DNA of 64,000 nucleotides from a virus. The translations under genes were made by a program, and so were the position numbers. Numbering within the stretch: the first letter of the stretch is position 1; each line of letters begins with the position of its first letter. Of this stretch, positions 4,403 to 64,000 are shown in pieces. The notes under the pieces are model-generated. The model saw only the letters and a program-made list of their open reading frames with translations, was not told the DNA's origin and did no database searches. Location of the stretch: positions 19,536-83,535 of the IMG/VR virus record IMGVR_UViG_3300019360_000002; one strand, given 5' to 3'.

Positions 4403-4696
4403 ATGGACTACAACAAAATTGAAAACTCTGCTCCCGCAATCCCGGCAACCGGCGCGCTTCCAGCGCAGGCGCCTCTCGTTCCGCCTGCGCCGCCCGAGGC
4501 TTTCTTGGTGGCCCGAGAAGACGTGCTCACCATCTTGCTCCAGCACGAACAGGAGCAGAGGCTCGCCGCTCAGACAGCGGCGCTCAAGACGGAGCAGACC
4601 CTACTGCGCCTCCAGCTGTCTCAGAAGTACGGGGTTGACTTCACCCAGTACACGATCGACACGCTAAACAACGTAGCGAAAAGGAACCCCAAATGA
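4403..4696 (+). CDS. Hypothetical protein, possible fibre assembly chaperone
   Basis: GAGGAG RBS; Pro-rich N-terminus then a coiled-coil segment. Confidence 0.6.
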   Translation: MDYNKIENSAPAIPATGALPAQAPLVPPAPPEAFLVAREDVLTILLQHEQEQRLAAQTAALKTEQTLLRLQLSQKYGVDFTQYTIDTLNNVAKRNPK

Positions 4697-4983
4697 ATGT
4701 CGATGTCGATTACGACACCCCGGAAAAACAGCCGGATGTGACCAAGTGCGTGCTCGTCATCAGTGGCGTCGACCCCCAGGCGCTCACCGTATCCGGCGTA
4801 TGCTTGCAGCAAGACGGGAGTGGCGTTACCCGGGGTTCGCCGATCCCGTTTATCAATCTGCCCGTAGGGATGGTTGGGCTCACAGCGCTCGCTGATGACA
4901 CGGTGGCGGCCCTTCAGACCGAGATAAACCCGTCCACCGGCAAGCCGTACTTGCCGAAAGGCAAGATCGTCGTCACGCCGTAG
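4693..4983 (+). CDS. Hypothetical protein
   Basis: ATGA overlap with the upstream gene. Confidence 0.6.
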   Translation: MNVDVDYDTPEKQPDVTKCVLVISGVDPQALTVSGVCLQQDGSGVTRGSPIPFINLPVGMVGLTALADDTVAALQTEINPSTGKPYLPKGKIVVTP

Positions 4984-19361: not shown

Positions 19362-19614
19362 CTGTTGAAGAAGAGATGCGCTACTGCCTTGAAGTCGCTG
19401 CCGCCGTGTTCAACCGGTACAAGAGCAAGCTCAATCACGACAGCCGGCTGCAAAACGACCTGGAAGACGCCATCGCCAAGGCGCTTTTCAGGGAGCGCAG
19501 GCTGGCGCGCATCGAAGCCTACGGCAACGTCGTTCACGAGATACAAGGCACGCGCGCCGACTGGGACTACGGACTAGTCGACGACCTCCAGAAGCTCATC
19601 ACTGCGGAGAAACT

Positions 19615-45580: not shown

Positions 45581-46993
45581 TTAGGGTGTCCAGGGCGAGT
45601 CAAAGCCGAGCGGCCGGTCGTTGTCGCTGTTGCGGCGGCGCCTTGGGTTTTCGCGCTCACCGCCGGCAGCGCCGAAGATCTCCTCCAGCATCTTGTCCTG
45701 CTTGACTTGATCGGGTGTCTTCAGGCGCTTCGCTGCGTACGTCGCTTCGAGAGCCGGGCGAATGTCACCAACTTCCCACGGGTCGACTTCCAGGAAGGCG
45801 AGAAACTCAAGCGCCTTGAGCACCTCGTCTTTTTTCATGGCGTCGTATCCGCCAACCTTAACCTTGTCTCGGTCCCAGCCTGGCAGTCGGTCGCCCTTGC
45901 CCTTTATCTGGCGAACACGCTCTACGTCTTGGTTGTGCATCTGCGCTTCGATGGTGAAGAGCGGCTTGCCAGACGGCCGGCGCAGGGAGAAGATCTTGGT
46001 ATCGCCTCGCTTGACCGCGCCCGCGTAGCCGTACTGCGTGTCGCCGACGCAGATGCCGAGCGCCGAGCCCTCGGCCTTCAGCTCCGACGAAAGTAGATCG
46101 ACCACGTAGAAGCCGTCCTTGAAGCGGTAGACGATTCGCTCCTCCGGCGGTGTCGCAGCCTCCTCGATGAGTTCCTCGCCGAGGGTTTCACGCGCCGCCG
46201 CCTCCACCTTGTCCCAGTTCACATCGGCCACGAAGTAGTAGCCGATGTCTCCGTAGTCGATTTGAAACTCGTACTTGGGGAACAGGTCGTCGAATTTGAT
46301 GCGGAGGTACGTATTATTGTTGATCTGCTTGACCGCTTCTTCGATCTCGTCCGCGAACATAGGATCGGTAAGGTTCGCCAGGTCCCTTTTGTCGAAGTAG
46401 ATGCCGCCGTGGTCGGAGACGCTTTCCCTGAAGATCCCCTCGCGGCTGTATTCGTTGCCGCTAATGTGGAAATCGTAGTTGTCGGCATCGCGAAGCGCTT
46501 CGTTGATGGCGCCTCGAACCTCGTCTGGAGACGGCGACTCGCCACCCTCGGGCATGAGCTTGTCGGTGAGCTGCTCGACTTCTTCTTGGATGCCTCGGTG
46601 ATCGATGATCTCGTCTTGTTCGCCGAGCCATTGGGCGAAGTAATCGGAGCCACTCTCGATCCACTGCTGTTTGGTGATTTCGTCCGGTTCGAGCAACCGC
46701 TTCTCGCGCTCGACAAAAGCGTCGACCAGCTCCTTCACTCGGGCCAGGCTTTCTGGGTCGTTTTCCAGGATGCATTCCTGGTCGTCGGCGTCGAGAGAGT
46801 TCCACTCCTCCTCGTTGAAGGCGTCGCGAGGCAGAGCCCGAACTTGTGCTCTGCTCATCCCCTCCACGTAGGCACCGCCCACGACCAGGGGTCCCGACCG
46901 CACCGCCGTCATCTTGGGCTTGCCCTCTTCGTCGCGCTCGAACAAGTCCGGGTGCTCACCGATCTTGGGGTTCACGCACTTGTTCTTGCGCAT
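45581..46993 (-). CDS. Acidic protein with a C-terminal PcfJ-like domain
   Basis: ELKAEGSALGICVG...IFSLR...KPLFTIE...QIKGKGDRLP; basic RENPRRRR tail; ATG sits inside a TTGCG-ATG-CGCAA site. Confidence 0.65.
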   Translation of the reverse strand: MRKNKCVNPKIGEHPDLFERDEEGKPKMTAVRSGPLVVGGAYVEGMSRAQVRALPRDAFNEEEWNSLDADDQECILENDPESLARVKELVDAFVEREKRLLEPDEITKQQWIESGSDYFAQWLGEQDEIIDHRGIQEEVEQLTDKLMPEGGESPSPDEVRGAINEALRDADNYDFHISGNEYSREGIFRESVSDHGGIYFDKRDLANLTDPMFADEIEEAVKQINNNTYLRIKFDDLFPKYEFQIDYGDIGYYFVADVNWDKVEAAARETLGEELIEEAATPPEERIVYRFKDGFYVVDLLSSELKAEGSALGICVGDTQYGYAGAVKRGDTKIFSLRRPSGKPLFTIEAQMHNQDVERVRQIKGKGDRLPGWDRDKVKVGGYDAMKKDEVLKALEFLAFLEVDPWEVGDIRPALEATYAAKRLKTPDQVKQDKMLEEIFGAAGGERENPRRRRNSDNDRPLGFDSPWTP

Positions 46994-47001
46994 CGCAATT
47001 C

Positions 47002-47049
47002 CTCTCTGAAGGCAAGCAGCTCTCTGAAGGCAAGCAGCTCTCTGAAGGC
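47002..47049. repeat. 18-bp tandem repeat, about 2.7 copies
   Basis: CTCTCTGAAGGCAAGCAG x2 plus CTCTCTGAAGGC. Confidence 0.9.
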
Positions 47050-47054
47050 CGATC

Positions 47055-47428
47055 CTACCGCTTCTTGGTGAGCGCTCGGTAGGCCAAGATGCCGCCCAGG
47101 ACCAAGGCCACCTTGCCGAGCGGCGACCTGACGAATTTCTTGATGTCGGCTTCCATGCCGGTGCTGGATCCACCGCTCCCGGAGTAGTTGGCTCCCAACG
47201 CCATGCGCCTCACGACGCTGGCGCCGGCCCGACGGGCGAGGCACGGGTTGTCGTAGGTGCGGCCGTCCGAGGCGAGCACCGGGTCGAAGCCGGTGCACGG
47301 GTCGGCGACCACGAACACGTCGGGCGACGGGTAGTTGTACCAGGGACCGCCGCCGTACCAGGGGCCTCCGCCTCCCCGCAACCGCCTCCGCCATGGATGT
47401 CCGTGACCGTGGTGACCGTGTGGGGCAT
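47055..47428 (-). CDS. Small membrane-anchored protein with a Kazal-like motif; apparent frameshift just after the ATG
   Basis: PCTGFDPVLASDGRTYDNPC; C-terminal TM plus KKR; AAGGAG-ATG at 47428 is out of frame by one base. Confidence 0.55.
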
Positions 47429-47443
47429 GGTGATCTCCTTTAT

Positions 47444-47755
47444 TTACACAGGCCCGTAGGCGTCAGGGCCGCTGCCAGGTTCTGTGAAGAACCAGTAAAA
47501 CCGGTTTTGGTCCTCGAACAGAAAGTCGTCTTCGTATCCGACACCCTGTTCTTGCGCACGCTTAAGCGCGTGCCTGTCGTTCGCAACCGCGTATACAGGA
47601 AGAAACTCTTCGATGTGAATGATGGCGTAGCTGTCTTGTTCAGACAGGCTGATTTCATGGCCCCCGTTTGCGCCGAGGTGGGCTAGCAGCTCTCCGAGCG
47701 CGATGAACGCGGCTCCTGAACCGCGTACCTCTTTTTTGTATAGACTGATATCCAT
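47444..47755 (-). CDS. Hypothetical protein
   Basis: AGGA RBS. Confidence 0.55.
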   Translation of the reverse strand: MDISLYKKEVRGSGAAFIALGELLAHLGANGGHEISLSEQDSYAIIHIEEFLPVYAVANDRHALKRAQEQGVGYEDDFLFEDQNRFYWFFTEPGSGPDAYGPV

Positions 47756-47759
47756 GATT

Positions 47760-48356
47760 TCATCCTTTCAAGACGTAGTAGAGCCCGCCCAGGATGAGGG
47801 CGTAGCCTACGACGCCGATGCCAGTTTCTGTGAAGATGGGGATGTTGTTCTGTACGGCGCGCTCACGCACACCAGGCCGCCACTGGTCAACAGGCACGAG
47901 TGGTTCGGCCGGGATAGGGATGAAGCCGAACTGCTTCGACGGGAAGCCGCCGACCGGAATGCCGAAGCGGCCGGTGTACTCGGAGAGCCTGTCGGGCTTG
48001 ATCTTGAGGTCGAAGTGCAGGTGCGCTGCTGACTGCTTGATACCCGAGGCGCCAGACTCGGCGATCTGCTGGCCGGCGCGCACGATGTCCCCTACCTTCA
48101 CCTGGCGAACCGACAGGTGGAGGTAGCGCGACAAGATGCCGTTATCGTGTTGGATCGCGATGATGTCGCCCGCCGGATCGGGCAGGGCATTCTTCGAGGT
48201 GACGACCTTGCCATCGCCGACGGCGAAAATAGGTGTGCCGACGCTGGCGCGAAAGTCTAGACCTTCGTGTTTCTCACCTTCGCCACGATACGGGCGAGGG
48301 TCCCCCCACCCGCTCGCCACGAAACTCGGTCTCGGAACCGGGCTGACGAACGTCAT
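47760..48356 (-). CDS. M23 family peptidoglycan endopeptidase with a C-terminal TM anchor
   Basis: HEGLDF, YLHLS, AHLHF; terminal IGVVGYALILGGLYYVL. Confidence 0.9.
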   Translation of the reverse strand: MTFVSPVPRPSFVASGWGDPRPYRGEGEKHEGLDFRASVGTPIFAVGDGKVVTSKNALPDPAGDIIAIQHDNGILSRYLHLSVRQVKVGDIVRAGQQIAESGASGIKQSAAHLHFDLKIKPDRLSEYTGRFGIPVGGFPSKQFGFIPIPAEPLVPVDQWRPGVRERAVQNNIPIFTETGIGVVGYALILGGLYYVLKG

Positions 48357-48624
48357 GGTGCACCTTGGTCGCAGCGAAGGCTGCCGTAAGTACGAGGACG
48401 AGGAGGATCAGCACTGCGGTTGCGAGGCGCAAGGCGGTCCTGTCCGGCGGCCGGTAGGTGGTGGGTGCACCGTCGAGCCAGGTGGTCTCGGACATGTGGA
48501 AAGCGAGCGTCCGCGAGAGGATCTGCTCGCGGGTCTTCTTGGATGCCTTGCGTTCCTCGTACGACAGGTTTTCGGACATGATTGCCCTCCAGATTGGTGG
48601 TGCGGTGTTGATTATGCAGCACGG

Positions 48625-49371
48625 TTATCCCTCGTCCCGGACTTCCATGCGGTAGAACACGCCGGGCGGTGCACTCGGCCCGGTGAGAAACAGGAGCAGT
48701 ACGTCGAAGCTGTCGTCGAACGGGCGGTTGAACACGAAGGAGCTGGCCGCCGCTACTGCGACCACACCCGGGGTCAGGTCGGTATCCTTCGGCCCAGATC
48801 CGCCTGCGATGTTGAGCGAACGGCCAACCACGCGCACGCCGATCGCCGCCGCCCCTGGGTTCGCCACGTTGACGAACAGCGTCTTGCGCCCGTAGCAGTA
48901 GATGAAGGCGATGAGGCTTTCGCCGGCCGGTACGCCGATATTGTCCTGGGCGAACTTCGGCACGCGCCGAGTCGCTCTTGTCACATGTGGCTTGAGCGCA
49001 AACCAGATGTCGACGAACGGCGCAGGGTCGGCAGGGGCGCCCAGAAGAGCGGTGGTGTCGATCGGCCTGCCGCCTTGGATGATGAGGCGCGTAGGCTGGC
49101 CGTTCGGCGGCGGCAGTCGGAAGGTGATGGGCGCCCAAGGCGCGAGCTGGGCGCTGTTCAGCTCCAGCGTGGAGACAACAGGCGTAGGCCAGCTCACACT
49201 GAACAGATCCAGGTCGGACATGCCGCCGACCATGATGCCGGCCACACCGCTCGGCAATTCGAAGAGCGCAGGGAAGCGCACGTCGTCGATGTCGCCCGTG
49301 AGGCGATACACATCGTCGCCGCGCTGGATGGCCTGGCTGATTGAATCACCGTTGTTCGGGTTGATACCCAT
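48625..49371 (-). CDS. Beta-rich virion-like protein
   Basis: GAGGTG RBS; alternating hydrophobic beta pattern. Confidence 0.55.
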   Translation of the reverse strand: MGINPNNGDSISQAIQRGDDVYRLTGDIDDVRFPALFELPSGVAGIMVGGMSDLDLFSVSWPTPVVSTLELNSAQLAPWAPITFRLPPPNGQPTRLIIQGGRPIDTTALLGAPADPAPFVDIWFALKPHVTRATRRVPKFAQDNIGVPAGESLIAFIYCYGRKTLFVNVANPGAAAIGVRVVGRSLNIAGGSGPKDTDLTPGVVAVAAASSFVFNRPFDDSFDVLLLFLTGPSAPPGVFYRMEVRDEG

Positions 49372-49374
49372 GGG

Positions 49375-49794
49375 TCACCTCCGCCCCAAAACACGAGCAA
49401 GCATGGAGGAGATTGTCGGCGCCACGGCCCTCACCCCGTTTAGGATCTCCAGGAGCCACGGGTACGGCTCGACCTGGACCGACACCCGCTGAAGCGAGTC
49501 GGATGCGATGTAGAGACGCGTGAGCGGCACCATGACGATCTTCACATCTTCGTCCGCCGGCAGGAGGCGGCCCTTGCCGCTGCCCACTGGCATCAGCTCT
49601 TCCTGGTTGCCGACAGAGACCGGCCCCGGGCTTTCGAGTCGCAAGGTGATGAGCGACCAGTTGGGCAAGGACAGGAGCAGATCGGTCTGTCCTGGCGTGG
49701 TGAACACCGTGTAGATGTTGGTGGCGATACCGGTGTACAGATCGGGGCCGGTCGTGCCTGGCTGAATCGGAGTCTTCGTCGGAATCGGACCCAT
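49375..49794 (-). CDS. Beta-rich virion-like protein
   Basis: GGAGGT RBS; small jelly-roll-like pattern. Confidence 0.55.
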   Translation of the reverse strand: MGPIPTKTPIQPGTTGPDLYTGIATNIYTVFTTPGQTDLLLSLPNWSLITLRLESPGPVSVGNQEELMPVGSGKGRLLPADEDVKIVMVPLTRLYIASDSLQRVSVQVEPYPWLLEILNGVRAVAPTISSMLARVLGRR

Positions 49795-49796
49795 AG

Positions 49797-50465
49797 CTAC
49801 CTCCAGATGAGGAGCGCCAGGCCGGCTGCGGCGATGAGGCCGAATCCGAAGCCTGGCGAGCGCGGCAGCACCACGCCCTTGGGGAGCGCGTAGGTGATGC
49901 CGGCTGGGGCCGGTACCATGACCGGCACCCCTACGGTTGGGAAGGCGATCTGAGCGCCTTCATTCCACAAGGTTTCCACAGAGGTAGTGCGAGCCAGGAC
50001 TTTGCCAGCAGGATAACCGGACACGGTGACGTTCGGGTGTGCCTTTACGTACGCAAGCAGGGTTGGAAAGTGCGCCGAGCCGACGAGTGCTACCAGCTTG
50101 GTGACGGCGCCGATGCCGAGCGCGAATACGAGCCGCGCCATCTTCCACTGCTCGGGTGAGCCAGGCACAATGACCGGATAGCGAACCGCAATTCTGGCTG
50201 CCTCGATGTTGTACTCCAGGCCGGCGAGAAAGATGTTGCCCTCTGGGTCCTTGCGGACCTCGGGGTTTACGCCTACGGTGCGCGGGAAGCTTTCTGTAAT
50301 TTGGTAGTAACCAGCCTCTCCTAGACGAGGATCACCAGTGACCATGCGACCAGAGGATTCGTGGTCGGCAATGGCCGCAAAAAAGCCGACTGGCATGCCG
50401 CCACGATAGCGGTCAAGCTCGACACGATGCTGATCGTAGAACTTCTTGGCGCCAGAAACCGACAC
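49797..50465 (-). CDS. Lytic transglycosylase-like protein with a C-terminal TM anchor
   Basis: AIADHESSG (catalytic E), GYYQI, DPEGNI; terminal FGLIAAAGLALLIWR. Confidence 0.7.
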   Translation of the reverse strand: MSVSGAKKFYDQHRVELDRYRGGMPVGFFAAIADHESSGRMVTGDPRLGEAGYYQITESFPRTVGVNPEVRKDPEGNIFLAGLEYNIEAARIAVRYPVIVPGSPEQWKMARLVFALGIGAVTKLVALVGSAHFPTLLAYVKAHPNVTVSGYPAGKVLARTTSVETLWNEGAQIAFPTVGVPVMVPAPAGITYALPKGVVLPRSPGFGFGLIAAAGLALLIWR

Positions 50466-50497
50466 GCACGTTCGCTTCTACCGGGGAGAAGCCCAGT

Positions 50498-51088
50498 TTA
50501 GGCCTTCGGCTTGCACCTTGCAAGCAGCACGTCGCGGGCGGCATTCAAGCGCTTCATCGACTCTGTGGAGCCGCCCTTGTCCGAGTGGTAGATCTGGGCG
50601 AGCTGTTTGTAGCGTGCCTTGACCAGCTCCACGGTGAGCTTGGTGGCCGGTTCGAAGCCCAGGACCACCATGGGGTCCTCCACGGGCACCCGGCGAGGCG
50701 GAGGCGGCCCAGGAGGTACCTGGGGCCGCTTGGGCGGGACACCCTTTCGAGCGGCGTTCGCCTTCTCGGCGGCGGCCCTGGTACGGTCCCAGGCCTCTTT
50801 CACGGCCTCCCTGCGCTCGCCAGGGGCCTTGGGCGTCGATACCCGGTCCACGAGGTGGGCGAAGCCGTCTACGAAGCCCACAACGCGACCAAGCGCGCCT
50901 TGGACCCTGGGGTTATCGAACACGTCGTCGAGGAACTCGTCGACGATCTCGGCGCCCTCGGAGACCTCATCCTCCTCATCGCCATAGACCTCAGCCTCGT
51001 GCTCCTCGCAGAGCGGTGGGTTGCCTTCACCGACGCGGGTGCACTGACGACCGCGAACGAGAAAGGTGCACTTGCGCGAATTGGGCAT
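50498..51088 (-). CDS. J-domain protein (HSD variant) with an N-terminal Zn-finger-like motif
   Basis: DPMVVLG...VKARYKQLAQIYHSDKGGSTESMKRLNAARDVL; C..C..C..H at the N-terminus. Confidence 0.75.
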   Translation of the reverse strand: MPNSRKCTFLVRGRQCTRVGEGNPPLCEEHEAEVYGDEEDEVSEGAEIVDEFLDDVFDNPRVQGALGRVVGFVDGFAHLVDRVSTPKAPGERREAVKEAWDRTRAAAEKANAARKGVPPKRPQVPPGPPPPRRVPVEDPMVVLGFEPATKLTVELVKARYKQLAQIYHSDKGGSTESMKRLNAARDVLLARCKPKA

Positions 51089-51089
51089 G

Positions 51090-51467
51090 CTACGGAGCCG
51101 GCGGTAGGGTAGGAGGACGAGGCGTTACGTGGTTCTCTCGCTTCTTGTTCACCTTGGCGTCCGTCTTGTGACTCACAACCTCCCTCGGCCAGTTCTGCCG
51201 GATGCCAGCTCTGTCCACGCGGTCCATGGCGTAGTCGGTGGCGATCTCGTGCTTCTTCTCGGCCGAGTGCGGCGCCTTGCCCAGCTTGATGAGCACGCGC
51301 GCCTTCTCTTCTGCGAGCGCTACGCCGTCCTCCACCCTGAGGACCGAGCCGATCACCACCGTCATCGTGTTGGGCGGTTCGATAGAGCTGCCGCCGTCAG
51401 CGAAGGCAAGCGCCGTCCAGACCATGAGCACGCCGACGAACAGGCACAAGGACAAGACCCATTTCAT
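51090..51467 (-). CDS. Possible holin
   Basis: Hydrophobic N-terminus; V..AEE....SAEK...A..Y pattern reminiscent of LL-H-type holins; lysis context. Confidence 0.4.
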   Translation of the reverse strand: MKWVLSLCLFVGVLMVWTALAFADGGSSIEPPNTMTVVIGSVLRVEDGVALAEEKARVLIKLGKAPHSAEKKHEIATDYAMDRVDRAGIRQNWPREVVSHKTDAKVNKKRENHVTPRPPTLPPAP

Positions 51468-51531
51468 GAGAGAACCCTCGCTACCGGATAGCCAGAGGAT
51501 ATCACAGGTCACCGGTAGGGCGCCTTGATCG

Positions 51532-52125
51532 GTCGGTTTCGTCCCTTTCCGCTGGGGTCAACATCCTCGCCCCGGGCTATGCGCTCGATGATGTCGGAAC
51601 TTCTTCCCCGTTCCGCTGGGGTTGTCACCTGCTTGTTGGGACGCATGCGAATCCTCCCGTCTGCGTGTCGGAACTTCTTCCCCGTTCCGCGGTGGTTGTC
51701 ACGCGGCCAAGCAGCCTCATGCGCTTCCGGTCCACGTAGTCGGAACTTCTTCCCCGTTCCGCGGGGGTTGTCACGGCGCCGATGTTTGCCACGGCTGTCG
51801 GAACCTCTTCCCCGTTCCGCGGGGGTTGTCATCCGCTGCCTGCCACGAGTCACCTCTACAGCTTGACGGTCGGAACTTCTTCCCCGTTCCGCGGGGGTTG
51901 TCACCCGGTTGTCGTTGATGTAGATCTGGCACTTCAAGATCAGGTCGGAACTTATTCCCCGTTCCGCTGGGGTTGTCACAGGACTGTCCGTCATCATTGA
52001 TGGATGGTTTCCGTCGTCGGAACTTCTTCCCCGTTCCGCGGGGGTTGTCACCTGCGAACCCTTGCTCGCGTGGGCGTGCTACCGACCGAGTCGGAACTTC
52101 TTCCCCGTTCCGCGGGGGTTGTCAC
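51532..52125 (-). CRISPR. CRISPR array: 8 full 36-bp repeats plus one degenerate terminal repeat, 8 spacers
   Basis: Plus-strand repeat GTCGGAACTTCTTCCCCGTTCCGCGGGGGTTGTCAC at 51593, 51667, 51739, 51797, 51869, 51944, 52016, 52090; degenerate copy at ~51532-51562; unique spacers of ~30, 38, 36, 22, 36, 39, 36, 38 nt; decay at the left end implies minus-strand transcription. Confidence 0.97.
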
Positions 52126-53717
52126 GGCGCATCCTGATTCGCCTTGGCGGGTGCGGAGTTAATGCGGCGCTTGCGAGCGCCATCGCGCATCCGCTCCTGC
52201 CGCGCCGATAAGCCTGCGGATCCATTACCGGCGTCCGGGTCCAGCACGTGCGCGCTCGCGCTCGCTAGCAAGTTCGTGCCTGCCTGTTCGTCCTGGTCGG
52301 TCGCGACGCCGCAGCTCTGGCAGGTGAGCATGAGCTGGCGGCGCTCATCGTCCTTCCAGTCGTTTACATGCCCGCACTGGCAGCAGCGCAGTGTGGTGTC
52401 GGCGGCGGGGGCGTCGAGCACGATACAGCCGTGCGTGGCCTGGCGCAGCGTGGACACCAGCTCGCCGGGCGCGGCCCAGCGCTGGAGGATGCGCTCGTGG
52501 TGACGAGACGGCGCCTCGCCGTCGCGCTTCTCTCCGAACGTCGTCAGGCCGCTGTCATCCTCGACGGCGATCACCTCGTAGCGCCGTGTCCAGGTTGCGG
52601 CGAGTTGCCGGAATTGCTCCTGACGGATGTGCTGTGCGCGCCTTCGGTGCTCGGCCGCCTGGCGCACCGCCGAGCGCCACATGAGCGCGGCGGCAGGGGC
52701 AGTGCCCTCCGTCTTGAGTCTTGCAACCAGCGAAAGGAGGCGCTCTCGCTTGCGAGGCCACGCTATCTCGGGGTGATCGGCGCGCAGCGCGTTCTGGAGG
52801 TCATCGGCTTCGCCGTCGAGCCCAGCGGCGCGGGTGTAGAGCGTTTCGACGCGCGGATCGAGCCGCACCTCCTCCTGTCGTCCCGCCGAGTCGACGAGGT
52901 AGGCGAGGCGTACGCCGCCGTCGGGAAGCCTGCGCCAGCCCACGTCGAGGCCGGCACGGTCGCGCGATCCAGTTGACGCCCGATCCAGTCCCCGATCCGC
53001 TGGGGTCTCGCACACAAACTGCACGGTCCAGCGCACGAGTGGACCAACGGGCACACGCTTCGCCACCACCCACTTCACTACCGCGCCCTCGGCGATCGGC
53101 CGGTGGTAGCGGATCTGGAAGCGCGCGAAGATGGGTTCGCGGCCTTCAGACCCGATACGCAGGAGGGCGTCGGCCAAACAGCGACCTGCGCCACCGCCAT
53201 ACTTCTTGTCGCTGACCGCGAGGCGTACGCGCGTGTCTTCTCCGAGCAACTCCGTTACGGAGGCCCCGTTCTGGAGCTGGACGGCGATCAGGCCGCTGCG
53301 GTCCCAGCGACGAAAGGACGGACGCGGGCTCCGGCTCGCCTGCTCAGCCGCCTTTTCGACTTGGAGGTACGTTCCCCAGTACACACCACACACGGCACGC
53401 GCTCGCCGGATGATGTCTCGGTAGCGTTCGTTGATGGTCATGAGCACACTCTTCGCCGGTCCCGCTGCGGCGCGCTTTCGCGCTTCACGAACCATCTTCC
53501 AGGCGGCGTCTTTGTCGGCATGAGGCGCGTCGGGCGGGAGACTGAGCGCCGTGGCCCGTTCGTCGACGCTGTGCTCATCGAGAGTGTTAGAGACGGCACC
53601 GAAGCGAGCGCGCGCCATCTCCACGAGGAGGTTGTAGTAGCGGTGCGCCCGCCACAACTGGTCCTCGACATCACGCTCGTGATCCATGAGCCGCGCGCCG
53701 TACTTGTACACGATCAT
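52122..53717 (-). CDS. cas12m: Compact type V CRISPR effector, Cas12m (V-U1/C2c4)-like, 531 aa
   Basis: GAGGTG RBS; IVYKYG...QLWRAHRYYNLLV, GVYWGTY, FRRWDRSGLIAVQLQ, LRIGS...YHRPI; RuvC-I GLDVGWR, RuvC-II IAVEDD, WAAPGEL, Zn finger CCQCG/CQSCG, RuvC-III DQDEQAGTNL; abuts the array. Confidence 0.82.
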   Translation of the reverse strand: MIVYKYGARLMDHERDVEDQLWRAHRYYNLLVEMARARFGAVSNTLDEHSVDERATALSLPPDAPHADKDAAWKMVREARKRAAAGPAKSVLMTINERYRDIIRRARAVCGVYWGTYLQVEKAAEQASRSPRPSFRRWDRSGLIAVQLQNGASVTELLGEDTRVRLAVSDKKYGGGAGRCLADALLRIGSEGREPIFARFQIRYHRPIAEGAVVKWVVAKRVPVGPLVRWTVQFVCETPADRGLDRASTGSRDRAGLDVGWRRLPDGGVRLAYLVDSAGRQEEVRLDPRVETLYTRAAGLDGEADDLQNALRADHPEIAWPRKRERLLSLVARLKTEGTAPAAALMWRSAVRQAAEHRRRAQHIRQEQFRQLAATWTRRYEVIAVEDDSGLTTFGEKRDGEAPSRHHERILQRWAAPGELVSTLRQATHGCIVLDAPAADTTLRCCQCGHVNDWKDDERRQLMLTCQSCGVATDQDEQAGTNLLASASAHVLDPDAGNGSAGLSARQERMRDGARKRRINSAPAKANQDAP

Positions 53718-53847
53718 CGCTACACCTCGTCCTTCCGAAAGGATTGCAGCACAGTACGGGCCTTTCTAGGAACGCGTTTTCGCATCCAGTAGTTGTTCGC
53801 AGTAAAAGCACGCCAGCAGATCGTGTTCGGCAGCCTTCTTTACACGC

Positions 53848-54201
53848 TCACGCATCCGCGATCTTCTTACCCGCGATCAGCTTCATCCACGGGTTCTCCT
53901 CCGAGGCGTCGATGAGGGCGTCGAGGCAGCGGTTGAAGGTATCCTCGGGCACGTCGAGCTGGGTCATGAGGTAGTGGGCGAGGAAGGCCACGATGACCGT
54001 ACGCTCGAACACGTCGCCGGTTGCGAGCGACAAGCGGGCGACCAGCTCATCGAAAAACGGGCCGTGTTCCTCGATGATGGCCGTCATCTGCTTGCGAAGC
54101 TCGGTCTGCGCGGCGTGGAACGCCTCGTGCTCCTCTTCGGTGTGGTACCCGCCGCAGTCTTCGCACGCGGGTGGGATCTTGGTGGTCGGATCAGGCATCA
54201 C
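53848..54201 (-). CDS. Hypothetical protein
   Basis: AGGAG RBS; CEDC motif. Confidence 0.6.
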   Translation of the reverse strand: MMPDPTTKIPPACEDCGGYHTEEEHEAFHAAQTELRKQMTAIIEEHGPFFDELVARLSLATGDVFERTVIVAFLAHYLMTQLDVPEDTFNRCLDALIDASEENPWMKLIAGKKIADA

Positions 54202-54342
54202 TTCTTCTCCTTGTAGTTGGGACAGCCAGCCTTGGCGCCGGCCGCGACGGCTTGGGAACGAAACCGTTCTCGTCTTCCTGCTCGGTGTCGGTGATGCAGT
54301 GCGGGCAAACCACGTCGCCGCCGTTGGCGTAGCAAATCACGC

Positions 54343-54729
54343 TCATGTTTGTGTCTCCTCTCCTAGATCCTTCCACAGTTTCTTGCCCAGCCGAAATGCT
54401 GCCGTGTTGCCGTTCGCGCACGCCTCGTCGCCGTCGAAGCCTTGCAGGTACGAGATCACCCAGTCGAGGTCTACGCCGAGCGCCTCGGCGACCATCTCTT
54501 CGAGAAGGAACTCGCTCGTGAGCACGGCGGTGGATTCCTTCTCGGAGAGCAGGCACGCACACACCGGGCACACCTTCGGCGTCTTGGCCATCTTGCCGGC
54601 GGTCTTGGTGCAGCCGTCGTAGGTGCCGCAGGCGCCCTGGCACAGGCGCTTGCCCTGCTTGCCGACCTTCTTGATTGCGGCTCGCAAGTAATTGTCGGCG
54701 GCGAGGTCGGAGTAGCTCGCTTCGCTCAC
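54343..54729 (-). CDS. Zn-finger hypothetical protein
   Basis: CQGAC...CPVC; GTGA/ATGA coupling. Confidence 0.6.
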   Translation of the reverse strand: MSEASYSDLAADNYLRAAIKKVGKQGKRLCQGACGTYDGCTKTAGKMAKTPKVCPVCACLLSEKESTAVLTSEFLLEEMVAEALGVDLDWVISYLQGFDGDEACANGNTAAFRLGKKLWKDLGEETQT

Positions 54730-55003
54730 GGCAACCTGAGCTTGTGCTTGTTTGCGAACCGGCCCCAGCGGCGCGTGTTGAACAGCTCGTCGAGCCGTTG
54801 CTGGGCCTTGGCTTCTTTGGCTTTGCTCACTTTGGAGCCCGGCGAGCGCTCCATGAGGTCGTAGAGGGCCTTGGCCGCGTCCAAGGCGCCGCTGTTCACG
54901 GCGCGACCGTGGGCAGAACCCGGTTCCACCGTCGGTTCAGGCGCGATGTTGTAGGCCCCGAAGAGAGGGTCTTCGAACGTCCTCCGCTTGGGCAGGTTGA
55001 TTT

Positions 55004-55339
55004 TCATGCCCCGTTCAGCGCCAGCGACGCCGCCTCCAGGAGCATGCGCTGGGCCTGTCCAGCGGACCGACACACCGTGTCGTTCCACTCGACGGTGTCG
55101 AGGCCGGCACCGTTTCCACCCATATCCGTGACCACCACGGCGTCGGTGATCAGCAAGCACCTGCCGGTGCGCGATCCGATCTTGCTGGCTTGATCGGGAG
55201 ACTCGTCGCACGCCATGCGAATTACGAACGAGACGCAGTGACGCCCTTTCCCGTCAGTCCCGACGTTTCGGCACCAGCCGGTTGCCGACAGGATTGTGGC
55301 TGCCTTGTCGAGCAGCCGTGCTTCCATTTTTTTCTTCAT
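55004..55339 (-). CDS. Conserved small phage protein (DUF6197-like)
   Basis: LLDKAATIL...GWC...GRHC...EWND..RS......LLEAA; TGGAGGACGAC RBS. Confidence 0.6.
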   Translation of the reverse strand: MKKKMEARLLDKAATILSATGWCRNVGTDGKGRHCVSFVIRMACDESPDQASKIGSRTGRCLLITDAVVVTDMGGNGAGLDTVEWNDTVCRSAGQAQRMLLEAASLALNGA

Positions 55340-55470
55340 CGTCGTCCTCCAGATGCCCAGAACGCCAAAGGGGGCCGGCACTTGTGCGCCGACCCCCTTG
55401 GACGATCACAGTACGGGTGTTGTGCTCGCGTGAGCATAGCCTGCGCTCGCTCCGCTCGCGTGGGCCACGC

Positions 55471-56457
55471 CTACTCGGCGGCCTTCTTGCCCTTCTTGCC
55501 CTTCTTGCCGCCCTCGCCGGCCGCCCACTCCTTCGCCTTGGCCGCCGCCTCCTTCGCCTTCTCCTTGGCGTTGGCCTCGGCCGCCTTCACGAAGTCCTTC
55601 CAGTCCGAGCCCATGCGGCCGAGCGCGATGGAGCCCTGGGCGAAGCGCAGGGTGTCGAACACGCCCTGCACGTAGTCGGTGCGCTTGACCTCCTTCTCGT
55701 CGGTCTCGTCGACGATCTGGACCATGGCCTTCAGGATCTTCGTCCCCGGGCGGTCCGACTTGCCCGCCTTCGCCTTGGCGGCCTTGCGTGCCTTCGACTT
55801 GCCCGACCGGCCGCCCGAAGCGATCGCCTTGAGCGCCTCGTCGACGCCCTCCTCCTGCGTGTCGAAGTCGTACTTGCCGGGCTTGTCGTCCTCGCCCTCG
55901 ACCCACTTGGCGGTCTTGGCCAGGGTTTCCACCGTGTCATCGGCGAGCTTGCCCGACTTCCACGCCTTCTTGAGCGCCGGGCCGCACTTCTCCAGGGCGT
56001 CGAGCTTGCGCGACACCCAGGTCTCCGACTTGTGGAGCGCCTTGGCGATGGTCTTCTGGTTGTCGCCCATGAGCTTCAGCTCGGCGCACTGCACCGCGAT
56101 CTCGTACGAGGAGAGCGCGTCGCGCAGGATGTTGTCGGCGAGGGCGTTGTAGCGCGCGTCCTTGAGCGTGTCGCCGGAGACGAAGTGGCACGGCACGCCC
56201 TGGGAGAAGCCGTTGGCGCGGCCTTCCTCGATGAGCAGGGTGATCGCGGCCTCGCGGCGGAAGCCGCCCACGAGCACCATGATCTCCTCGCCGTCCTTCT
56301 GCGTCTTCCACACCTGGAGCGGGTTCAGAAGCCCCCGCGCCTCGATGTCGTCGGCGAGGTTCTTGATGTCCTCCAGCTTCTCGCGCGGGTTCTTGAAGCC
56401 GACCTCCTCGCCAGGGGTCAGCTCGTCGAGCTTGATGGTGTCGTAGTTTGAATCCAT
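55471..56457 (-). CDS. ParB/KorB-like CTPase-HTH DNA-binding protein
   Basis: NPR...LADDIEARGLLNPLQV...LVGGFRREAA; DNILRDALSSYE; HTH QKTIAKALHKSETWVSRKL; Lys/Ala-rich tail. Confidence 0.85.
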   Translation of the reverse strand: MDSNYDTIKLDELTPGEEVGFKNPREKLEDIKNLADDIEARGLLNPLQVWKTQKDGEEIMVLVGGFRREAAITLLIEEGRANGFSQGVPCHFVSGDTLKDARYNALADNILRDALSSYEIAVQCAELKLMGDNQKTIAKALHKSETWVSRKLDALEKCGPALKKAWKSGKLADDTVETLAKTAKWVEGEDDKPGKYDFDTQEEGVDEALKAIASGGRSGKSKARKAAKAKAGKSDRPGTKILKAMVQIVDETDEKEVKRTDYVQGVFDTLRFAQGSIALGRMGSDWKDFVKAAEANAKEKAKEAAAKAKEWAAGEGGKKGKKGKKAAE

Positions 56458-56492
56458 GTCACGTCCTCCGTTGGTTGCGGTTCGCAATCGGG

Positions 56493-56801
56493 CTAGCTCG
56501 GCAGAAGCGCCAGCTTGCCCACATCGATCCAGTCGAAGCGGAACCTCTCCGATCCGGCCTGCACCTTGATGATCTCGTCCAGCTTGTCGAACACCGTCTC
56601 CATGTCCTTCTTCGCGAGGGCCTTCCACTCCGCTTCGGTCTTGCCCTGCACGGTGACAGGGACGCCCAGCTCCTTGCCGGCGCGGAAAAAGGCGGCGAGC
56701 GGGGTGGTGTCGCTCCGCTTGTAGTAGGAGCGGGTGAGCTTCACGTACCTCTTGGCGACATCAGACACGGCGGCACCCTTGGGTGCCCTGGCAGTTTTCA
56801 T
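56493..56801 (-). CDS. Hypothetical protein
   Basis: GTGGAGGACGAC RBS before ATG 56801. Confidence 0.6.
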   Translation of the reverse strand: MKTARAPKGAAVSDVAKRYVKLTRSYYKRSDTTPLAAFFRAGKELGVPVTVQGKTEAEWKALAKKDMETVFDKLDEIIKVQAGSERFRFDWIDVGKLALLPS

Positions 56802-57443
56802 CTCGTCGTCCTCCACTCACGGGTGTACCTGAGAGACTTGCGGCTTGCAACTCTTTTTTGCCTTGTTCTTGAAGATTCTGATGCGTGTGTGCCCCCTGGC
56901 CGTTTTGCCTTGTGCAAGGTTTCTTTCGCGACGTTTCTTGTGGTTAGTGCGGCTGTTTCGTGCCTTGGCGACGAGGTACGCCTCGTAGTCCATGGTGCCT
57001 ACCTGGCTCGAAAGCGTCCGACACTGAAAGCGTTTCCCTTCGGGGGCGCTGGCATCGAACCTGATGCCGAGATTCCCGCAGGAGGCGAAGATCATGTCCC
57101 CGACGGAGAACACCCTCAGGTCGTCGAGCGCGGCGGCCAGCACTACTTGCTCTCGACCTTGGTGGTGATGCGTGCGAGCATCCCCGCCGCTTCCTTGTGC
57201 TTGGGGACATCGGTCCAGCACCCGGCAGGCACAAGCCCACGCCACCTGGGCAGACCGGTGACCTTGCTCTTTGGGAGTTTTTGTCTCTTGCCCATGTCGT
57301 CCTCCAGTGATGGCCGAGCACCCCGCGCTGTCTGTCTTGAGCATCACCGCCCGAGAGTTGCTCCGAGTCGCTGTGCTCGGAGTGCGGCGATTCCACTTGC
57401 GGCGAAGAAGACAGACAGCGCGCGGCACTCGGCCGCCGTACCG

Positions 57444-58517
57444 CTACGCCGCCTTCTTGGTCACGTCGTAGGCGACGGACATCATGTCGAAGCGCTTGTC
57501 GGCGTCCGACTCCTTGCCGGCCAGCCAGGTGAGCGCGTTCGCCATGCGCCACATAGAGTTGCCCGGCGGCAGGTTCTCCACGTCGGCACCGTTATAGCAA
57601 TCGATCACCTCCTTGGCCTTGCCGGCGCCGAGCTGCTTCTTCAGGAATTCCTGCATCGACTTCGGCTCCACCTCCTTGTCGTGCGCCGCCTTGATGAGGT
57701 TCATGCGCTCCTGGATCTTGTGGGGCGAGAGGTACCCCTTGATGGCGTCGTGAACCATGCTCGCGCTCCGGTCGGTGTCGAGCTTGTAGGTCCTTGACGA
57801 CCAGATCTCCTCGTCCTCCAGGCGACCGCCCAGGTGGACCTGGCGAAGCGTCTCCTCGCCGGTCATGCCGTTCGCGCACTTGACGCGCAGGATGTACTCC
57901 TTGAGCGTGTGCGCGCCGTTGCCGAAGTCGGAGTTCTGCCACGAGTACCCCAGGCACATGAACTCGCCGGGGATCGGCTCGTAGATGGTGGGCAGGAGGA
58001 TCTGGATCGACACCCGGGTGTCGTTGAAGATGCCGTCCGTCGGCAAGGCGCCGACCGCCTGGCACGCCTTGGCGATGTTGTCCACGATGGGCCGCGAGTC
58101 GAGTCGGCGGAACTTGTTCGAGAGCAGCGCCCGCATCTCGCTCGCGTACGAGCGCGTGAGGTACTTGGTGGTCTTCTGGTGCGCGAACACCGTCCGCAGG
58201 TTGTGGGCGAGCAGCTCGTTGCCCCAGGCGTCATCCGGTTGGTTGCGAGTCGCCAGCTCCCTGGCGTACTCGCCGGGGATGCCGGCGCGCTCCATCACCT
58301 GGCCCCAGGCGTTTCGGTGGAGCCGCTCGCGCTCCACCGACTCCGGGACGCGGAAGAAGATGCCGCTCTCGTCGGCCTCGAAGTTCAGAGCGGTCGCCTT
58401 GACGATTCGGTCCTGGGGAACCTCGTTCTGGATCTTCTCCATCACCAAGATGGCGTTCTTGCGCCCCCTGTCGATGATGCGCTGCAACACTGCTTTCATT
58501 TCGGCCTTGGTGCTCAT
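57444..58517 (-). CDS. DUF932-like phage protein
   Basis: RALLSNKFRRLD...QNSDFGNGA...LRVKCANGM...RQVHLG; own promoter. Confidence 0.7.
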   Translation of the reverse strand: MSTKAEMKAVLQRIIDRGRKNAILVMEKIQNEVPQDRIVKATALNFEADESGIFFRVPESVERERLHRNAWGQVMERAGIPGEYARELATRNQPDDAWGNELLAHNLRTVFAHQKTTKYLTRSYASEMRALLSNKFRRLDSRPIVDNIAKACQAVGALPTDGIFNDTRVSIQILLPTIYEPIPGEFMCLGYSWQNSDFGNGAHTLKEYILRVKCANGMTGEETLRQVHLGGRLEDEEIWSSRTYKLDTDRSASMVHDAIKGYLSPHKIQERMNLIKAAHDKEVEPKSMQEFLKKQLGAGKAKEVIDCYNGADVENLPPGNSMWRMANALTWLAGKESDADKRFDMMSVAYDVTKKAA

Positions 58518-58551
58518 GTCGTCCTCCTGGTTGGTGCCTGATCCGTTGTTG

Positions 58552-58593
58552 ATACTACTTGCGAGTCACAAGCTAGGCAAGAAAAATTTGTTG
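58552..58593 (-). promoter_or_regulatory. Promoter carrying both motif classes
   Basis: TTGCCT-17-TAGTAT; TTGCGAGTCACAA in the spacer (58559-58571); CAAGAAAAATTTGTTG at 58578-58593. Confidence 0.65.
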
Positions 58594-58648
58594 GCCGCGT
58601 GTCGATCATCGCTTCGAGGTGGCACTGCCAAGGTAAATAATGTCGTGC

Positions 58649-59584
58649 TCATGTTGCCTCGCCGTACACCCAGTCAACGTCATCGCCGAACCGGTCCATC
58701 GCCCACTTCTCGATCCAGTCGGCGGCGATGCGCGCCATCGCGTGGTTGGCGGGCGTGTAGCCCGGGCGGATGGCGAGGAACCATCGCTCGGCGAGACGAT
58801 CTGGCCGCTTCGGCAGCCCGCTGAGATCGACGGTGGCGCAACCTCGCGCCTTCGACAGCGTGCCGACTAGGCAGGCGCACTCGCCGTCGTAGACGGAGCC
58901 GTCGACTTTTCCTTCGTGCAGCGCGGCGAGCAGGGCCGGCGCCTCGTCGGGCGCGAGGTCGAGCACCTGCCACAGATCCTCGCGGACGCCCTCCAGGTTC
59001 GCGCCCTCCAGGTTCGCGCCCTCCAGGTTCGCGCCCTCCAGGTTCGCGCCCTCCAGGTGCGCGCCCTCCAGGTTCGCGCCCTCCAGGTGCGCGCCCTCCA
59101 GGTTCGCGCCCTCCAGGTGCGCGCCCTCCAGGTTCGCGCCCCGCAGGTTCGCGCCCAGCAGGTCCGCGCCCCGCAGGTTCGCGCCCCACAGGTTCACGTC
59201 CTGCAGGTCCGCGCCCGACAGGTTCACGTCCTGCAGGTCCGCGCCCGACAGGTTCGCGCCCTCCAGGTTCGCGCCCTCCAGGTTCGCGCCCGACAGGTTC
59301 GCGCCCGACAGGTTCGCGCCCGACAGGTTCGCGTCCTGCAGGTCCGCGCCCGACAGGTCCGCGCCCGACAGGTCCGCGCCCGACAGGTTCGCGCCCGACA
59401 GGTCCGCGCCCGACAGGTTCGCGCCCCGCAGGTTCGCGCCCCACAGGTCCGCGCCCGACAGGTTCGCGCCCTTCCCGCGCGCTTTCTCGACGGCGCTGCG
59501 CAGCGGATTCGGGTCGTCGTCGGCGGCCTCGTAGGAGTAGAGGCACGCGTTGTCCCAGAGCCGGCGAATCTTAATCTTGGCCAT
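58649..59584 (-). CDS. Pentapeptide repeat protein
   Basis: About 32 A(N/D/H)L(S/E/R/W)G-type pentads encoded by a 15-bp tandem repeat; conserved C-terminal domain DGSVYDGECACLVGT. Confidence 0.92.
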   Translation of the reverse strand: MAKIKIRRLWDNACLYSYEAADDDPNPLRSAVEKARGKGANLSGADLWGANLRGANLSGADLSGANLSGADLSGADLSGADLQDANLSGANLSGANLSGANLEGANLEGANLSGADLQDVNLSGADLQDVNLWGANLRGADLLGANLRGANLEGAHLEGANLEGAHLEGANLEGAHLEGANLEGANLEGANLEGANLEGVREDLWQVLDLAPDEAPALLAALHEGKVDGSVYDGECACLVGTLSKARGCATVDLSGLPKRPDRLAERWFLAIRPGYTPANHAMARIAADWIEKWAMDRFGDDVDWVYGEAT

Positions 59585-59616
59585 GTTGTCCTCCTGGTTG
59601 GTGTTTGATCCGTTGC

Positions 59617-59823
59617 TTAGGGCGTGAAACACATCCACTGGGGCCGCGTGTCGATCATCGCTTCGAGGTGGCACTGGGCGGGCGCCTCGCACGTCCGCTT
59701 GGGCAGGCACAACGAGGCGTCCGCTTCGCATCCCGATAGGCAGCACGGAGCACCCGGCACGCCGCACACCTCGGCGTCGTCACCGCAGCCGATCAAGAAA
59801 ATGGCGAGGAACAAAAAACGCAT
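59617..59823 (-). CDS. Small Cys-rich lipoprotein
   Basis: Signal MRFLFLAIFLIG-C; several more Cys. Confidence 0.6.
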   Translation of the reverse strand: MRFLFLAIFLIGCGDDAEVCGVPGAPCCLSGCEADASLCLPKRTCEAPAQCHLEAMIDTRPQWMCFTP

Positions 59824-59827
59824 GAGA

Positions 59828-62800: not shown

Positions 62801-63989
62801 CTCGGCGCGCGTCCAGTAGAAGTACACCGACGCCATCGGCACTGGCGGACGCGGGTCATCGCGGGGGAGGTTGTACTCTGGGGTGTGCGCCCGCAGGATC
62901 ACGTAGTCGGCGCCATCCGCCTTGCGGAAGGTGAAAATGACGGTCTCGAAGTCGAGCACGACTACACGAGCCCCGCGCGACGAAGAAGGTCAAGCGCCTT
63001 CGCAGCACTTGCCGGACGCTCCAGCGCCAGCTGGTCTTCGCGAGGCGCGTCTTTGATCGCGTCTCCACAAGCGTTGCTGATAGCCCACCAACGCCTGGCG
63101 GCGATCTTGGTGCCGTCTGCCCACGACGGTGGAGGACCCATCGCTGCGTACGCCACGCATGTGTTACGGTTGTGATAGTCGAGGACTTCGGCTTCTGCAT
63201 CCGATAGCACCCGCGACAGCTCTTCGTCGGTTAGCTTCGTCTCCATCGTCACGCCTCCTTGTAGAGCCGCTTCGCGTTGAACTGATCGCGCGTGCCCAGG
63301 TTCCACTTTTGGATCGTGCGCCCGTAGTTGTTCACGCCCAGCTCGTAGTCGTACTCGGTGCGCCGACCCCAGTCGGCCTTGCGCATGTACATCGTGCCAA
63401 CCGTCTCCATCGGGCGAGTGAACACGTCTGCGGACACGTGCAGCTTGTCGAGCACGTCGTTCACCACGTTGTGGAACGCCACCCAGTCGTCCCACTCCAA
63501 AAAACGCGTCGTGCGCTTCTTGCGCCCGTTCAGTTCGCACGGGCCGGGGTGCTGGCCGCAGTACGGCTTGGGCGTGACGAGGCGCACCGAACGCACCTCA
63601 ATGAGCTTGCCGCAGTTGGTCAAGTCGCAAGTGAAGCGACCGTCCTTGCGAATCGCAAGCGCAAGCGCATCGAAGACGCACTCACACAGCGAGCCGATCG
63701 CCGCGTGCGGCGCAGGTTTGATGGTGTAGGGCATGGGCTACTCCTTTTTCTCCCGAGGCAGACCGATGGCGTCCCACACCGCGTCGGGAATGAACGCGAC
63801 GCGTTTGTGACAAACATCCTCTACTGTTTCGCCCGCGTTGAGCATTCGACGCACCGCCTCTTCTCTGAGAACGCACCACCCTCCGGTGCGGTAAGGGTTC
63901 TCGGAGGGGGTTTCGTCCTTGACGGAGATGAAGATGATGCCTGCTTCCATGTGCGCAGCGCACTCGTCGCACGGCTTCTTGTCGAACAC
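59828..63989 (-). other. Cluster of about 11 small leftward hypothetical early genes
   Basis: Tightly packed minus-strand ORFs (e.g. 60342-60554, 60555-60764, 61608-62096, 62243-62959, 63249-63734, 63738-63989); operator CAACAAAAATTTGTCT at 61594-61609. Confidence 0.65.
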
Positions 63990-64000
63990 AGCCGCGCGAG

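Follow-up and report, generated by a model that had tools for sequence, protein, structure and literature searches.

A stretch of 64,000 nucleotides (nt), hereafter the window, taken from IMG/VR virus record IMGVR_UViG_3300019360_000002 (positions 19,536 to 83,535), carries a cas12m-like effector gene whose stop codon lies inside the first repeat of a CRISPR array, with no leader base between the two. The record is complete, at 83,535 bp with direct terminal repeats, and searches of all 83,535 bp for Cas1, Cas2 and Cas4 (PF01867, PF09827 and PF01930) returned 0 matches each, with controls that responded. Judged on its sequence, the locus is a phage-borne type V-M system without adaptation genes. 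We favor, with rather better than even confidence, the account in which it is a working, leaderless locus whose cas12m transcript would run on at its 3′ end through the array. The layout is one common to the Cas12m family, at its tight end, and not a new kind of system. The elements that carry the argument, all on the minus strand and numbered by position in the window, are as follows.

52122..53717, minus strand: cas12m-like effector gene, 531 amino acids (aa), identified by homology searches and by its RuvC and zinc-ribbon columns
52122..52124, minus strand: TGA stop of the effector, bases 2-4 of repeat 1, from the sequence and the open reading frame (ORF)
51593..52125, minus strand: CRISPR array of 8 repeats and 7 spacers, from the repeat search and a covariance model
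52090..52125, minus strand: repeat 1, 36 nt with no mismatch to the array consensus, from the repeat search and alignment
51563-51592, minus strand: last spacer, 30 nt, ahead of the degenerate ninth repeat, read by eye
51532..51562, minus strand: degenerate ninth repeat, 31 nt, its pseudoknot partner lost, read by eye

The gene–array junction

The effector ORF (52122..53717, translation table 11) starts with the ATG at 53717 and stays open for 531 aa up to the TGA at 52124..52122. On the minus strand the junction reads ...GAT GCG CCG TGA C/AACCCCC..., where the G of CCG, the last sense codon, opens repeat 1 (52125..52090) and the TGA occupies repeat bases 2-4. Gene and array overlap by 4 nt, and the intergenic distance is zero. 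An earlier note on this DNA had placed the stop codon within the first repeat and counted zero bases of leader, which the sequence, the ORF and the repeat calls bear out to the base. The same note asked whether an earlier true stop might exist; the frame was checked from ATG to TGA, no earlier in-frame stop is present, and there is no sign of one.

The TGA falls within the repeat because the repeat of the window lineage begins GTGAC and not with the family consensus GTTGC or GTCGC; in the aligned family repeats the lineage has GTGACAA, and most relatives have GTTGCAA or GTCGCAA. The stop in the repeat can therefore be regarded as a coincidence of an array that abuts the ORF and a repeat variant that starts GTGAC, and what exceeds chance is the adjacency of array and gene, not the position of the stop. 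In the predicted fold, the 7 unpaired bases at the 5′ end of the repeat, which lie outside the CRISPR RNA (crRNA) handle, contain the stop codon. The TGA also occurs in other repeats of the array, except the neighbor variants of R5.

Upstream of the junction, the protein ends in a tail (residues 487-531) of 45 residues beyond the last RuvC motif, NLLAS (482-486). The tail is of low complexity and basic, with an RKRR patch and with G, S, P, A, Q or N at 26 of its 45 positions. Tail length differs among relatives, some tails being very short and others several tens of residues long; they align poorly and frequently carry a basic patch. The tail is thus variable, probably with no constraint on its length, and the frame could therefore end wherever the next stop falls.

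The Cas12m effector and its repeat RNA

Type V-M systems are characterized biochemically by DNA binding that depends on a protospacer-adjacent motif and proceeds without cleavage, and by self-processing of the precursor crRNA (pre-crRNA). The window protein was compared with solved structures by phmmer, which as a single-sequence search gave PDB entry 23vw, "Cas12m", at E 1.3e-26. A profile built from the window protein and 12 relatives (A1) was then searched against the PDB and matched 23vw at 4e-147, Cas12m2 (8hio/8hhl) at 1e-82, 8pm4 at 1e-75 and UnCas12m4a (23vu) at 1.5e-64; all solved Cas12m proteins were found, and the next best match was a TnpB-like protein at 1e-11, a distant homology. 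The best PADLOC model was Cas12u1, an old subtype name (4.5e-44, residues 37-488). The only Pfam match was PF07282, the Cas12f1-like TNB zinc ribbon, at 26.5 bits against a cut-off of 26.3, and NCBIfam gave weak TnpB matches only. The best non-self protein match of the homologue search is ~30% identical. A RuvC-like domain at the C-terminus, into which a zinc ribbon (TNB) is inserted, is a feature of Cas12m membership and can be recognized in the sequence, with RuvC columns D258, E386 and D474/D476 and zinc-ribbon residues C445/C448/C466/C469, all in family-invariant columns. Taken together, these matches assign the effector to the Cas12m family of type V-M (formerly V-U1), a TnpB-derived type V protein. 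The protein has the D-E-D triad, and Cas12m variants with this triad are also reported not to cut (PMC11013384).

The array consists of 8 copies of a 36-nt unit at start-to-start spacings of 74, 72, 58, 72, 75, 72 and 74 nt, with spacers, effector-proximal first, of 38, 36, 39, 36, 22, 36 and 38 nt. From the gene side the repeats differ from the consensus at 0, 0, 2, 0, 2, 0, 1 and 1 positions, which makes 4 of the 8 identical and leaves at most 2 changes in the rest. A covariance model of 39 related repeats gave eight full-length matches (model positions 1-36), one lying exactly on 52090-52125 and one on each of the remaining 7 copies, and the degenerate ninth repeat scored below E=5 significance with covariance model R1. 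The 22-nt spacer (51775-51796) and its following repeat share an upstream GCGCC with repeat 1 and were considered as a duplicate of the gene 3′ end, which would have meant that the array grew by duplication. This candidate was rejected, as the local alignment score was 5 where shuffles averaged 5.8 (p 0.89). For a related locus, L051, the same comparison gave p 0.31 and 0.67 for two short spacers.

The structure of the repeat was examined on the 39 aligned repeats of related loci. The predicted fold leaves nt 1-7 unpaired and contains a 4-pair stem (nt 8-11/20-23) and a 6-pair pseudoknot helix (nt 14-19/29-34). Of the cells in these helices 88% are paired. Shuffled repeats give 59%, with 0 of 500 shuffles reaching the observed value, and controls with a slid partner give 30-46%. 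Changes on both sides are seen at 10 of 10 pairs. The 20 G·U cells against 7 A·C cells favor the effector strand. The Cas12m2 crRNA is described as having C(-22)..C(-17) paired to G(-8)..G(-3) and G(-23) to A(-2), with positions -36 to -30 disordered, and the protein is reported to cut upstream of the scaffold (PMC10442227). The unpaired first 7 nt of our repeat correspond to this -36..-30 segment, and the column before the pseudoknot (column 20, G in 35 of 39) and the penultimate base (column 43, A in 39 of 39) match the reported G(-23):A(-2) pair. With this support from covariation, the repeat is predicted to fold as a stem and pseudoknot like the Cas12m2 crRNA. Bigelyte et al. describe ~30 nt of the crRNA as repeat-derived, with processing within the repeat (PMC11013384).

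Searches around the array found little else of this kind. No stretch with at least 13 of 16 bases complementary to the repeat, as expected of an anti-repeat, occurs in the DNA of 47000-58000 outside the array, no Rfam family matches in 50500-54500, and no solitary repeat copy exists outside the array in the whole phage genome, where the best non-array matches have E 1.2 and 0.45. Read by eye, the repeat shows no visible -10-like box that would point to a promoter within the repeats in the style of type II-C. Inside cas12m, at 52988-53007 on the minus strand, there is a 20-nt same-sense match to the repeat stem (14 of 16 in the best windows) without the pseudoknot partner, which may be chance in a GC-rich coding sequence.

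The locus resembles the type V-M systems MmCas12m, Cas12m2 (8HHL/8HIO) and GoCas12m (8PM4) in full-length effector homology, in its 36-nt repeat with a predicted stem and pseudoknot, G:A pair and invariant 3′ AC, and in an array directly downstream on the same strand, with no adaptation genes and no anti-repeat found nearby. Unlike the characterized Cas12m proteins, the window protein is shorter (531 aa versus ~575-615) and ~30% identical to any protein found, and its gene is on a complete 83.5-kb phage, not on a plasmid or chromosome, with its stop inside repeat 1. All of the features tested (effector homology, RuvC and zinc ribbon, stem-pseudoknot repeat, and no cas1, cas2 or cas4) were found at the level of sequence and identify the locus as a member of type V-M.

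Junctions and spacer turnover across the family

Homologous loci were gathered from IMG/VR (54 distinct loci), species-representative genomes (20, mostly contigs of metagenome-assembled genomes), a GenBank phage record (1) and plasmids (2), which gives 77 loci and, with the window, 78. Three were dropped: L070, whose match is confined to residues 1-130, L073, which has 106 nt of DNA downstream, and L084, which matches in part. Grouping at ≥90% nt identity across the 3′ end of the gene turns the remaining 75 loci into 62 clusters, with L061 counted as having no array despite a repeat-like element 3 nt past its stop. A same-strand array begins within 181 nt of the stop in 51 of the 62 clusters, at a median gap of 30 nt. 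Six clusters have a gap of zero or less, 20 have one of 1-30 nt, 13 one of 31-100 nt and 12 one of >100 nt; the array thus lies ≤30 nt past the stop, or overlaps it, in 26 of the 51. On this comparison, an array that abuts the effector gene is the family norm, and the window sits at the tight end of a continuum. The six overlapping loci show six different overlaps.

Window: stop at nt 2-4 of repeat 1
L071: stop at about nt 23-25 of repeat 1
L031: stop at nt 31-33 of repeat 1
L094 (4162-4236) and L034 (4764-4854): frame continues across repeat 1 and spacer 1 to a stop in repeat 2
L050 (= L008), 4451-4974: frame reads through six repeats without a stop

Because these six overlaps differ, no geometry appears to be conserved, and the pattern looks like recurrent drift or compaction, not a dedicated device. 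The next-tightest loci have gaps of 3, 3, 5, 8, 9, 10 and 10 nt, and one of them is the Methylomonas koyamae plasmid pLM6. In L094, repeat 1 has GTCACC in place of the GTAACC of later repeats, which removes a stop.

In the absence of a leader, the earlier note had considered polarised acquisition by Cas1-Cas2 unlikely, and it had proposed a comparison of arrays in relatives for effector-proximal turnover. Such turnover is found. L064 (4731-5430), which has a gap of 62 nt, carries two extra effector-proximal spacers followed by spacers 1-7 of L057/L059 (4731-5790) in order, a pattern that may reflect polarised gain at the gene side or, equally well, proximal deletion in L057/L059. L049 (4769-4951) and L051 (4769-5278) belong to one gene cluster (≥90% nt identity at the 3′ end) and share none of their 2 and 7 spacers; L051 contains two half-length spacers (~18-19 nt), like the 22-nt spacer of the window at 51775-51796. 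The window, L002, L003 and L004 have consensus repeats next to the gene and their divergent copies at the far end of the array, and such distal decay is the usual signature of growth at the proximal end. In the Thermus phage Lalka, the gene-nearest spacers differ between isolates and the last spacer is shared (10.64898/2026.04.20.719267). The proximal spacers of L064, the distal repeat decay and the gene-proximal turnover in Lalka speak against the view that polarised acquisition is unlikely here, and the arrays of the Cas12m family, to judge from these comparisons, are clearly not fixed. The proposed comparison held for the relatives (L064 against L057/L059, L049 against L051), and the array of the window is without close relatives: its repeat pattern gave 0 matches in the viral, metagenome and genome contig collections, the three that were scanned. 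Among the matches listed, the longest exact match of a spacer in its own genome is 14 nt, which gives no sign of self-targeting. A protospacer search returned only 2 weak matches among GenBank phages (36 nt, 86%, E 0.2) and none among PLSDB plasmids.

In our view the more interesting result is that leaders are nearly absent across the family and that spacers turn over on the gene side. To judge from this locus, a type V-M array does not require its own leader, and the case is not a one-off, as half of the related loci have ≤30 nt from stop to repeat 1 and several overlap. This raises the question of how leaderless arrays without their own Cas1-Cas2 are transcribed and supplied with spacers, and the gene-proximal turnover in relatives says that they are supplied. 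It also raises the question of whether Cas12m arrays retain the gene/guide arrangement of their TnpB ancestors. Both questions can be tested on a small defined DNA fragment. For tool builders, the layout suggests cas12m and its guides as one very compact transcript.

Transcription, spacer supply and competing accounts

The locus sits in a run of tightly packed minus-strand ORFs, with the following neighbors.

53718..53847, minus strand: 130-nt intergenic stretch in front of the effector's start codon; the leftward cluster has no other sizeable gap, and a promoter might lie here
55471-56628, minus strand: ParB-like partition protein, with PHROG matches as low as 4e-18, which belongs to the leftward cluster and lies ~1.8 kb upstream of cas12m
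51090..51512, minus strand: next co-directional ORF past the array, with a probable ATG start near 51466 and a signal-peptide-like N-terminus

No sigma70-like promoter was found in 51000-54500, and none in the last 600 nt of the gene, even at a relaxed threshold of 8/12 matches, or in the 130-nt upstream gap. The only promoter-like site on either strand in 46000-64000 is at 61610-61583 on the minus strand. Between this site and the array, the minus strand holds only 5-pair, chance-level terminator-like stems, at 57429-57417 and at 53036-53020 (inside cas12m); the whole 46000-64000 scan found 16 terminator-like sites, compared to 15.1 expected from shuffles. Past the array, the next ORF begins ~65 nt after the degenerate repeat, and no consensus terminator was found between the two. 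Because there are zero intergenic bases, the array could be transcribed only from within or upstream of the gene, and gaps of 0-30 nt in half of the loci leave no room for an intergenic promoter in these either. Co-transcription of array and effector, with the pre-crRNA as the 3′ part of the effector transcript, is the simplest reading. The earlier note had gone as far as calling the pre-crRNA the 3′ untranslated region of the effector mRNA. The same-strand abutting layout across the family and the lack of a sigma70-like promoter in the gene end agree with this proposal; co-transcription itself is something we infer, and an internal non-consensus promoter is possible.

In the account that we favor, a promoter upstream of cas12m, or further up the leftward cluster, would drive cas12m and the array together. 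Cutting by Cas12m would follow within the unpaired 5′ flank of every repeat, ahead of the stem-pseudoknot handle, and would release a crRNA of a ~30-nt handle and a spacer. In a Cas12m-type crRNA the handle stands 5′ of the spacer and nothing upstream of repeat 1 would be needed in the RNA; because the handle precedes the spacer, no transcribed leader is needed, and a low-complexity protein tail can reach into repeat 1. The GTGAC start of the repeat itself would supply the stop codon. This stop would be robust, since duplication of repeat 1 at spacer gain, or recombination between repeats, would re-create the ...CC/GTGA... gene end, which survives such events because the other repeats carry the TGA too. 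The degenerate last repeat would prevent a spurious guide from being made out of downstream sequence. Spacers would probably be added by host Cas1-Cas2 in trans, with the gene 3′ end as the leader-side flank. We infer both the processing site and the spacer-adding machinery.

Several points weigh against this account. Transcription of the locus is itself read from the layout of the DNA, and for the processing site we rely on other Cas12m proteins, ~30% identical to this one. The nearest consensus promoter is ~8 kb upstream, and the 130-nt region before the gene shows none; moreover, the lack of a sigma70-like promoter within the gene is weak evidence, as the host may have another promoter consensus. 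No protospacer was found in PLSDB or, beyond the 2 weak matches, among GenBank phages, and the array is therefore only putatively active. The three collections scanned hold no close relative of the phage or of the repeat against which conservation of the window junction or turnover of its spacers could be compared. Finally, the junction table was curated by hand, and the repeat boundaries of some relatives are good to about ±3 nt.

The last 100-300 nt of the cas12m coding sequence might instead serve as a cryptic leader, holding both an array promoter and a recognition site for host Cas1-Cas2, with the array transcribed independently. We consider this unlikely, though worth keeping in view. 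Gain or loss of effector-proximal spacers in relatives and distal repeat decay both make the gene side behave as a leader end; gaps of 0-30 nt in 26 of 51 clusters imply that any leader function must lie in coding sequence, and the C-terminal tail, poorly conserved as protein, leaves room for DNA-level signals. Set against this are the lack of a sigma70-like promoter in the last 600 nt, even at 8/12 matches, and the finding in Lalka that gene and array lie in one abundant transcript, with a construct driven from upstream of the gene (10.64898/2026.04.20.719267). A cryptic leader is also compatible with read-through transcription and does not exclude it. A wider conjecture is that in Cas12m systems generally the gene 3′ end is the leader, with an array that derives from, and acts like, the omega-RNA end of a TnpB gene and an effector mRNA that is the pre-crRNA; host Cas1-Cas2 would insert at the coding/repeat junction, and the stop in the repeat would pit binding or cutting by Cas12m against translation termination, throttling its own synthesis and loading the first guide in cis. 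This we would rate somewhat lower again, as a long shot.

Less probable still is that the overlap is a regulatory device, in which effector synthesis is coupled to loading of the first crRNA, through autorepression or assembly in cis, much as TnpB processes its own mRNA. By the geometry of the junction, a ribosome that terminates at the UGA has to open stem 1, which begins 4 nt downstream of it, and Cas12m bound to or cutting repeat 1 would end the mRNA at or a few nt from the stop. Cas12m2 is reported to cut upstream of the scaffold, with -36..-30 disordered (PMC10442227), and TnpB makes omega-RNA from its own mRNA (PMC10278001). However, the stop positions differ among the relatives (repeat nt 2-4, 23-25 and 31-33, twice inside repeat 2, and a six-repeat read-through), most relatives have a gap, which argues against a conserved geometry under selection, and the TGA is in every repeat except the neighbor variants of R5, so it is not special to repeat 1. 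We give very little credence to an accident or decay, in which the original stop was lost, or the assembly is in error, and the ORF runs on to the next stop in a locus that may be inactive. Such a history would fit the low-complexity tail (26 of 45 residues G/S/P/A/Q/N), the scarcity of stop codons at 62-66% GC, the L050 frame that reads through six repeats and the lack of targets found for the spacers. It fits poorly with an intact ORF that has all RuvC and zinc-ribbon columns, with a 45-aa tail that is within the family range and carries the family's basic patch, with repeats of which 4 of 8 are identical and the rest have ≤2 changes, and with the recurrence of the same layout in independent contigs.

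The closest parallel for co-transcription is Lalka, in which a TnpB-like cas12r and its array, 15 bp apart, lie within one of the most abundant phage transcripts, and for which host type I-E adaptation in trans is proposed (10.64898/2026.04.20.719267). As a comparison of layout only, both loci have a phage-borne TnpB-like type V effector with a short array behind it and no adaptation genes. Cas12r differs in being a separate type V subtype according to its authors, with 29-bp repeats, DNA cleavage and a 15-bp gap in place of an overlap, and its crRNA has the spacer part 5′ and the repeat part 3′.

The overlap of TnpB with its omega-RNA, of which the junction had been called an echo, is noted in PMC10691335, and TnpB can make a guide from its own message (PMC10278001). 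There, too, nuclease and guide are encoded on one strand, and the guide begins at the 3′ end of the ORF or overlaps it, with the guide at the RNA 3′ end. Unlike that arrangement, the window overlap involves 4 nt of unpaired flank and not the scaffold, the handle is ~30 nt and not ~150 nt, and 8-9 repeats with 7-8 different spacers stand in place of a single guide fixed by the transposon end. The echo is thus partial: the effector is TnpB-derived and an overlap exists, but it is weakened in that the overlap is only 4 nt of unpaired flank and all six overlaps differ.

Phage Cas12m-like genes with an adjacent array are also found in the myxophage MV-1 (MvCas12m; 10.64898/2026.09.14.751636) and in Virus Rctr197k (KX853510.1). 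MvCas12m differs in its length of 610 aa; the preprint reports that MV-1 has no cas1/2/4 and no spacer targets, and its accessible text is silent on the gene/array junction. In the 2016 record of Virus Rctr197k (L095, 2444-5860), the Cas12m-like gene is annotated as "similar to transposase", with an annotated CRISPR 33 nt downstream. The claim of a first phage Cas12m in the accessible part of the MV-1 preprint is at odds with this record and with at least 54 such IMG/VR loci. At the level of titles and abstracts, we found no description of an effector ORF that ends in the first repeat and no paper that takes up the lack of a leader in V-M arrays; in the accessible text of PMC11013384, PMC10442227 and PMC10691335, "leader" has 0 occurrences.

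Three relatives depart from the usual array. In L084 (4863-4898) a lone repeat-like element overlaps the effector TAA with no array directly behind it, and in L061 (= L011, ~4750-4785) a lone repeat-like element lies 3 nt past the stop, with two more copies ~560 nt downstream; both may be single-guide, omega-RNA-like arrangements. L001 (= L030, 6842-8156) has a composite array, in which 36-nt repeats with a 72-nt period are followed by seven identical 28-nt repeats with a 61-nt period (7382-7775) and then by more degenerate copies, the 28-nt repeats keeping the 3′ part of the same repeat family.

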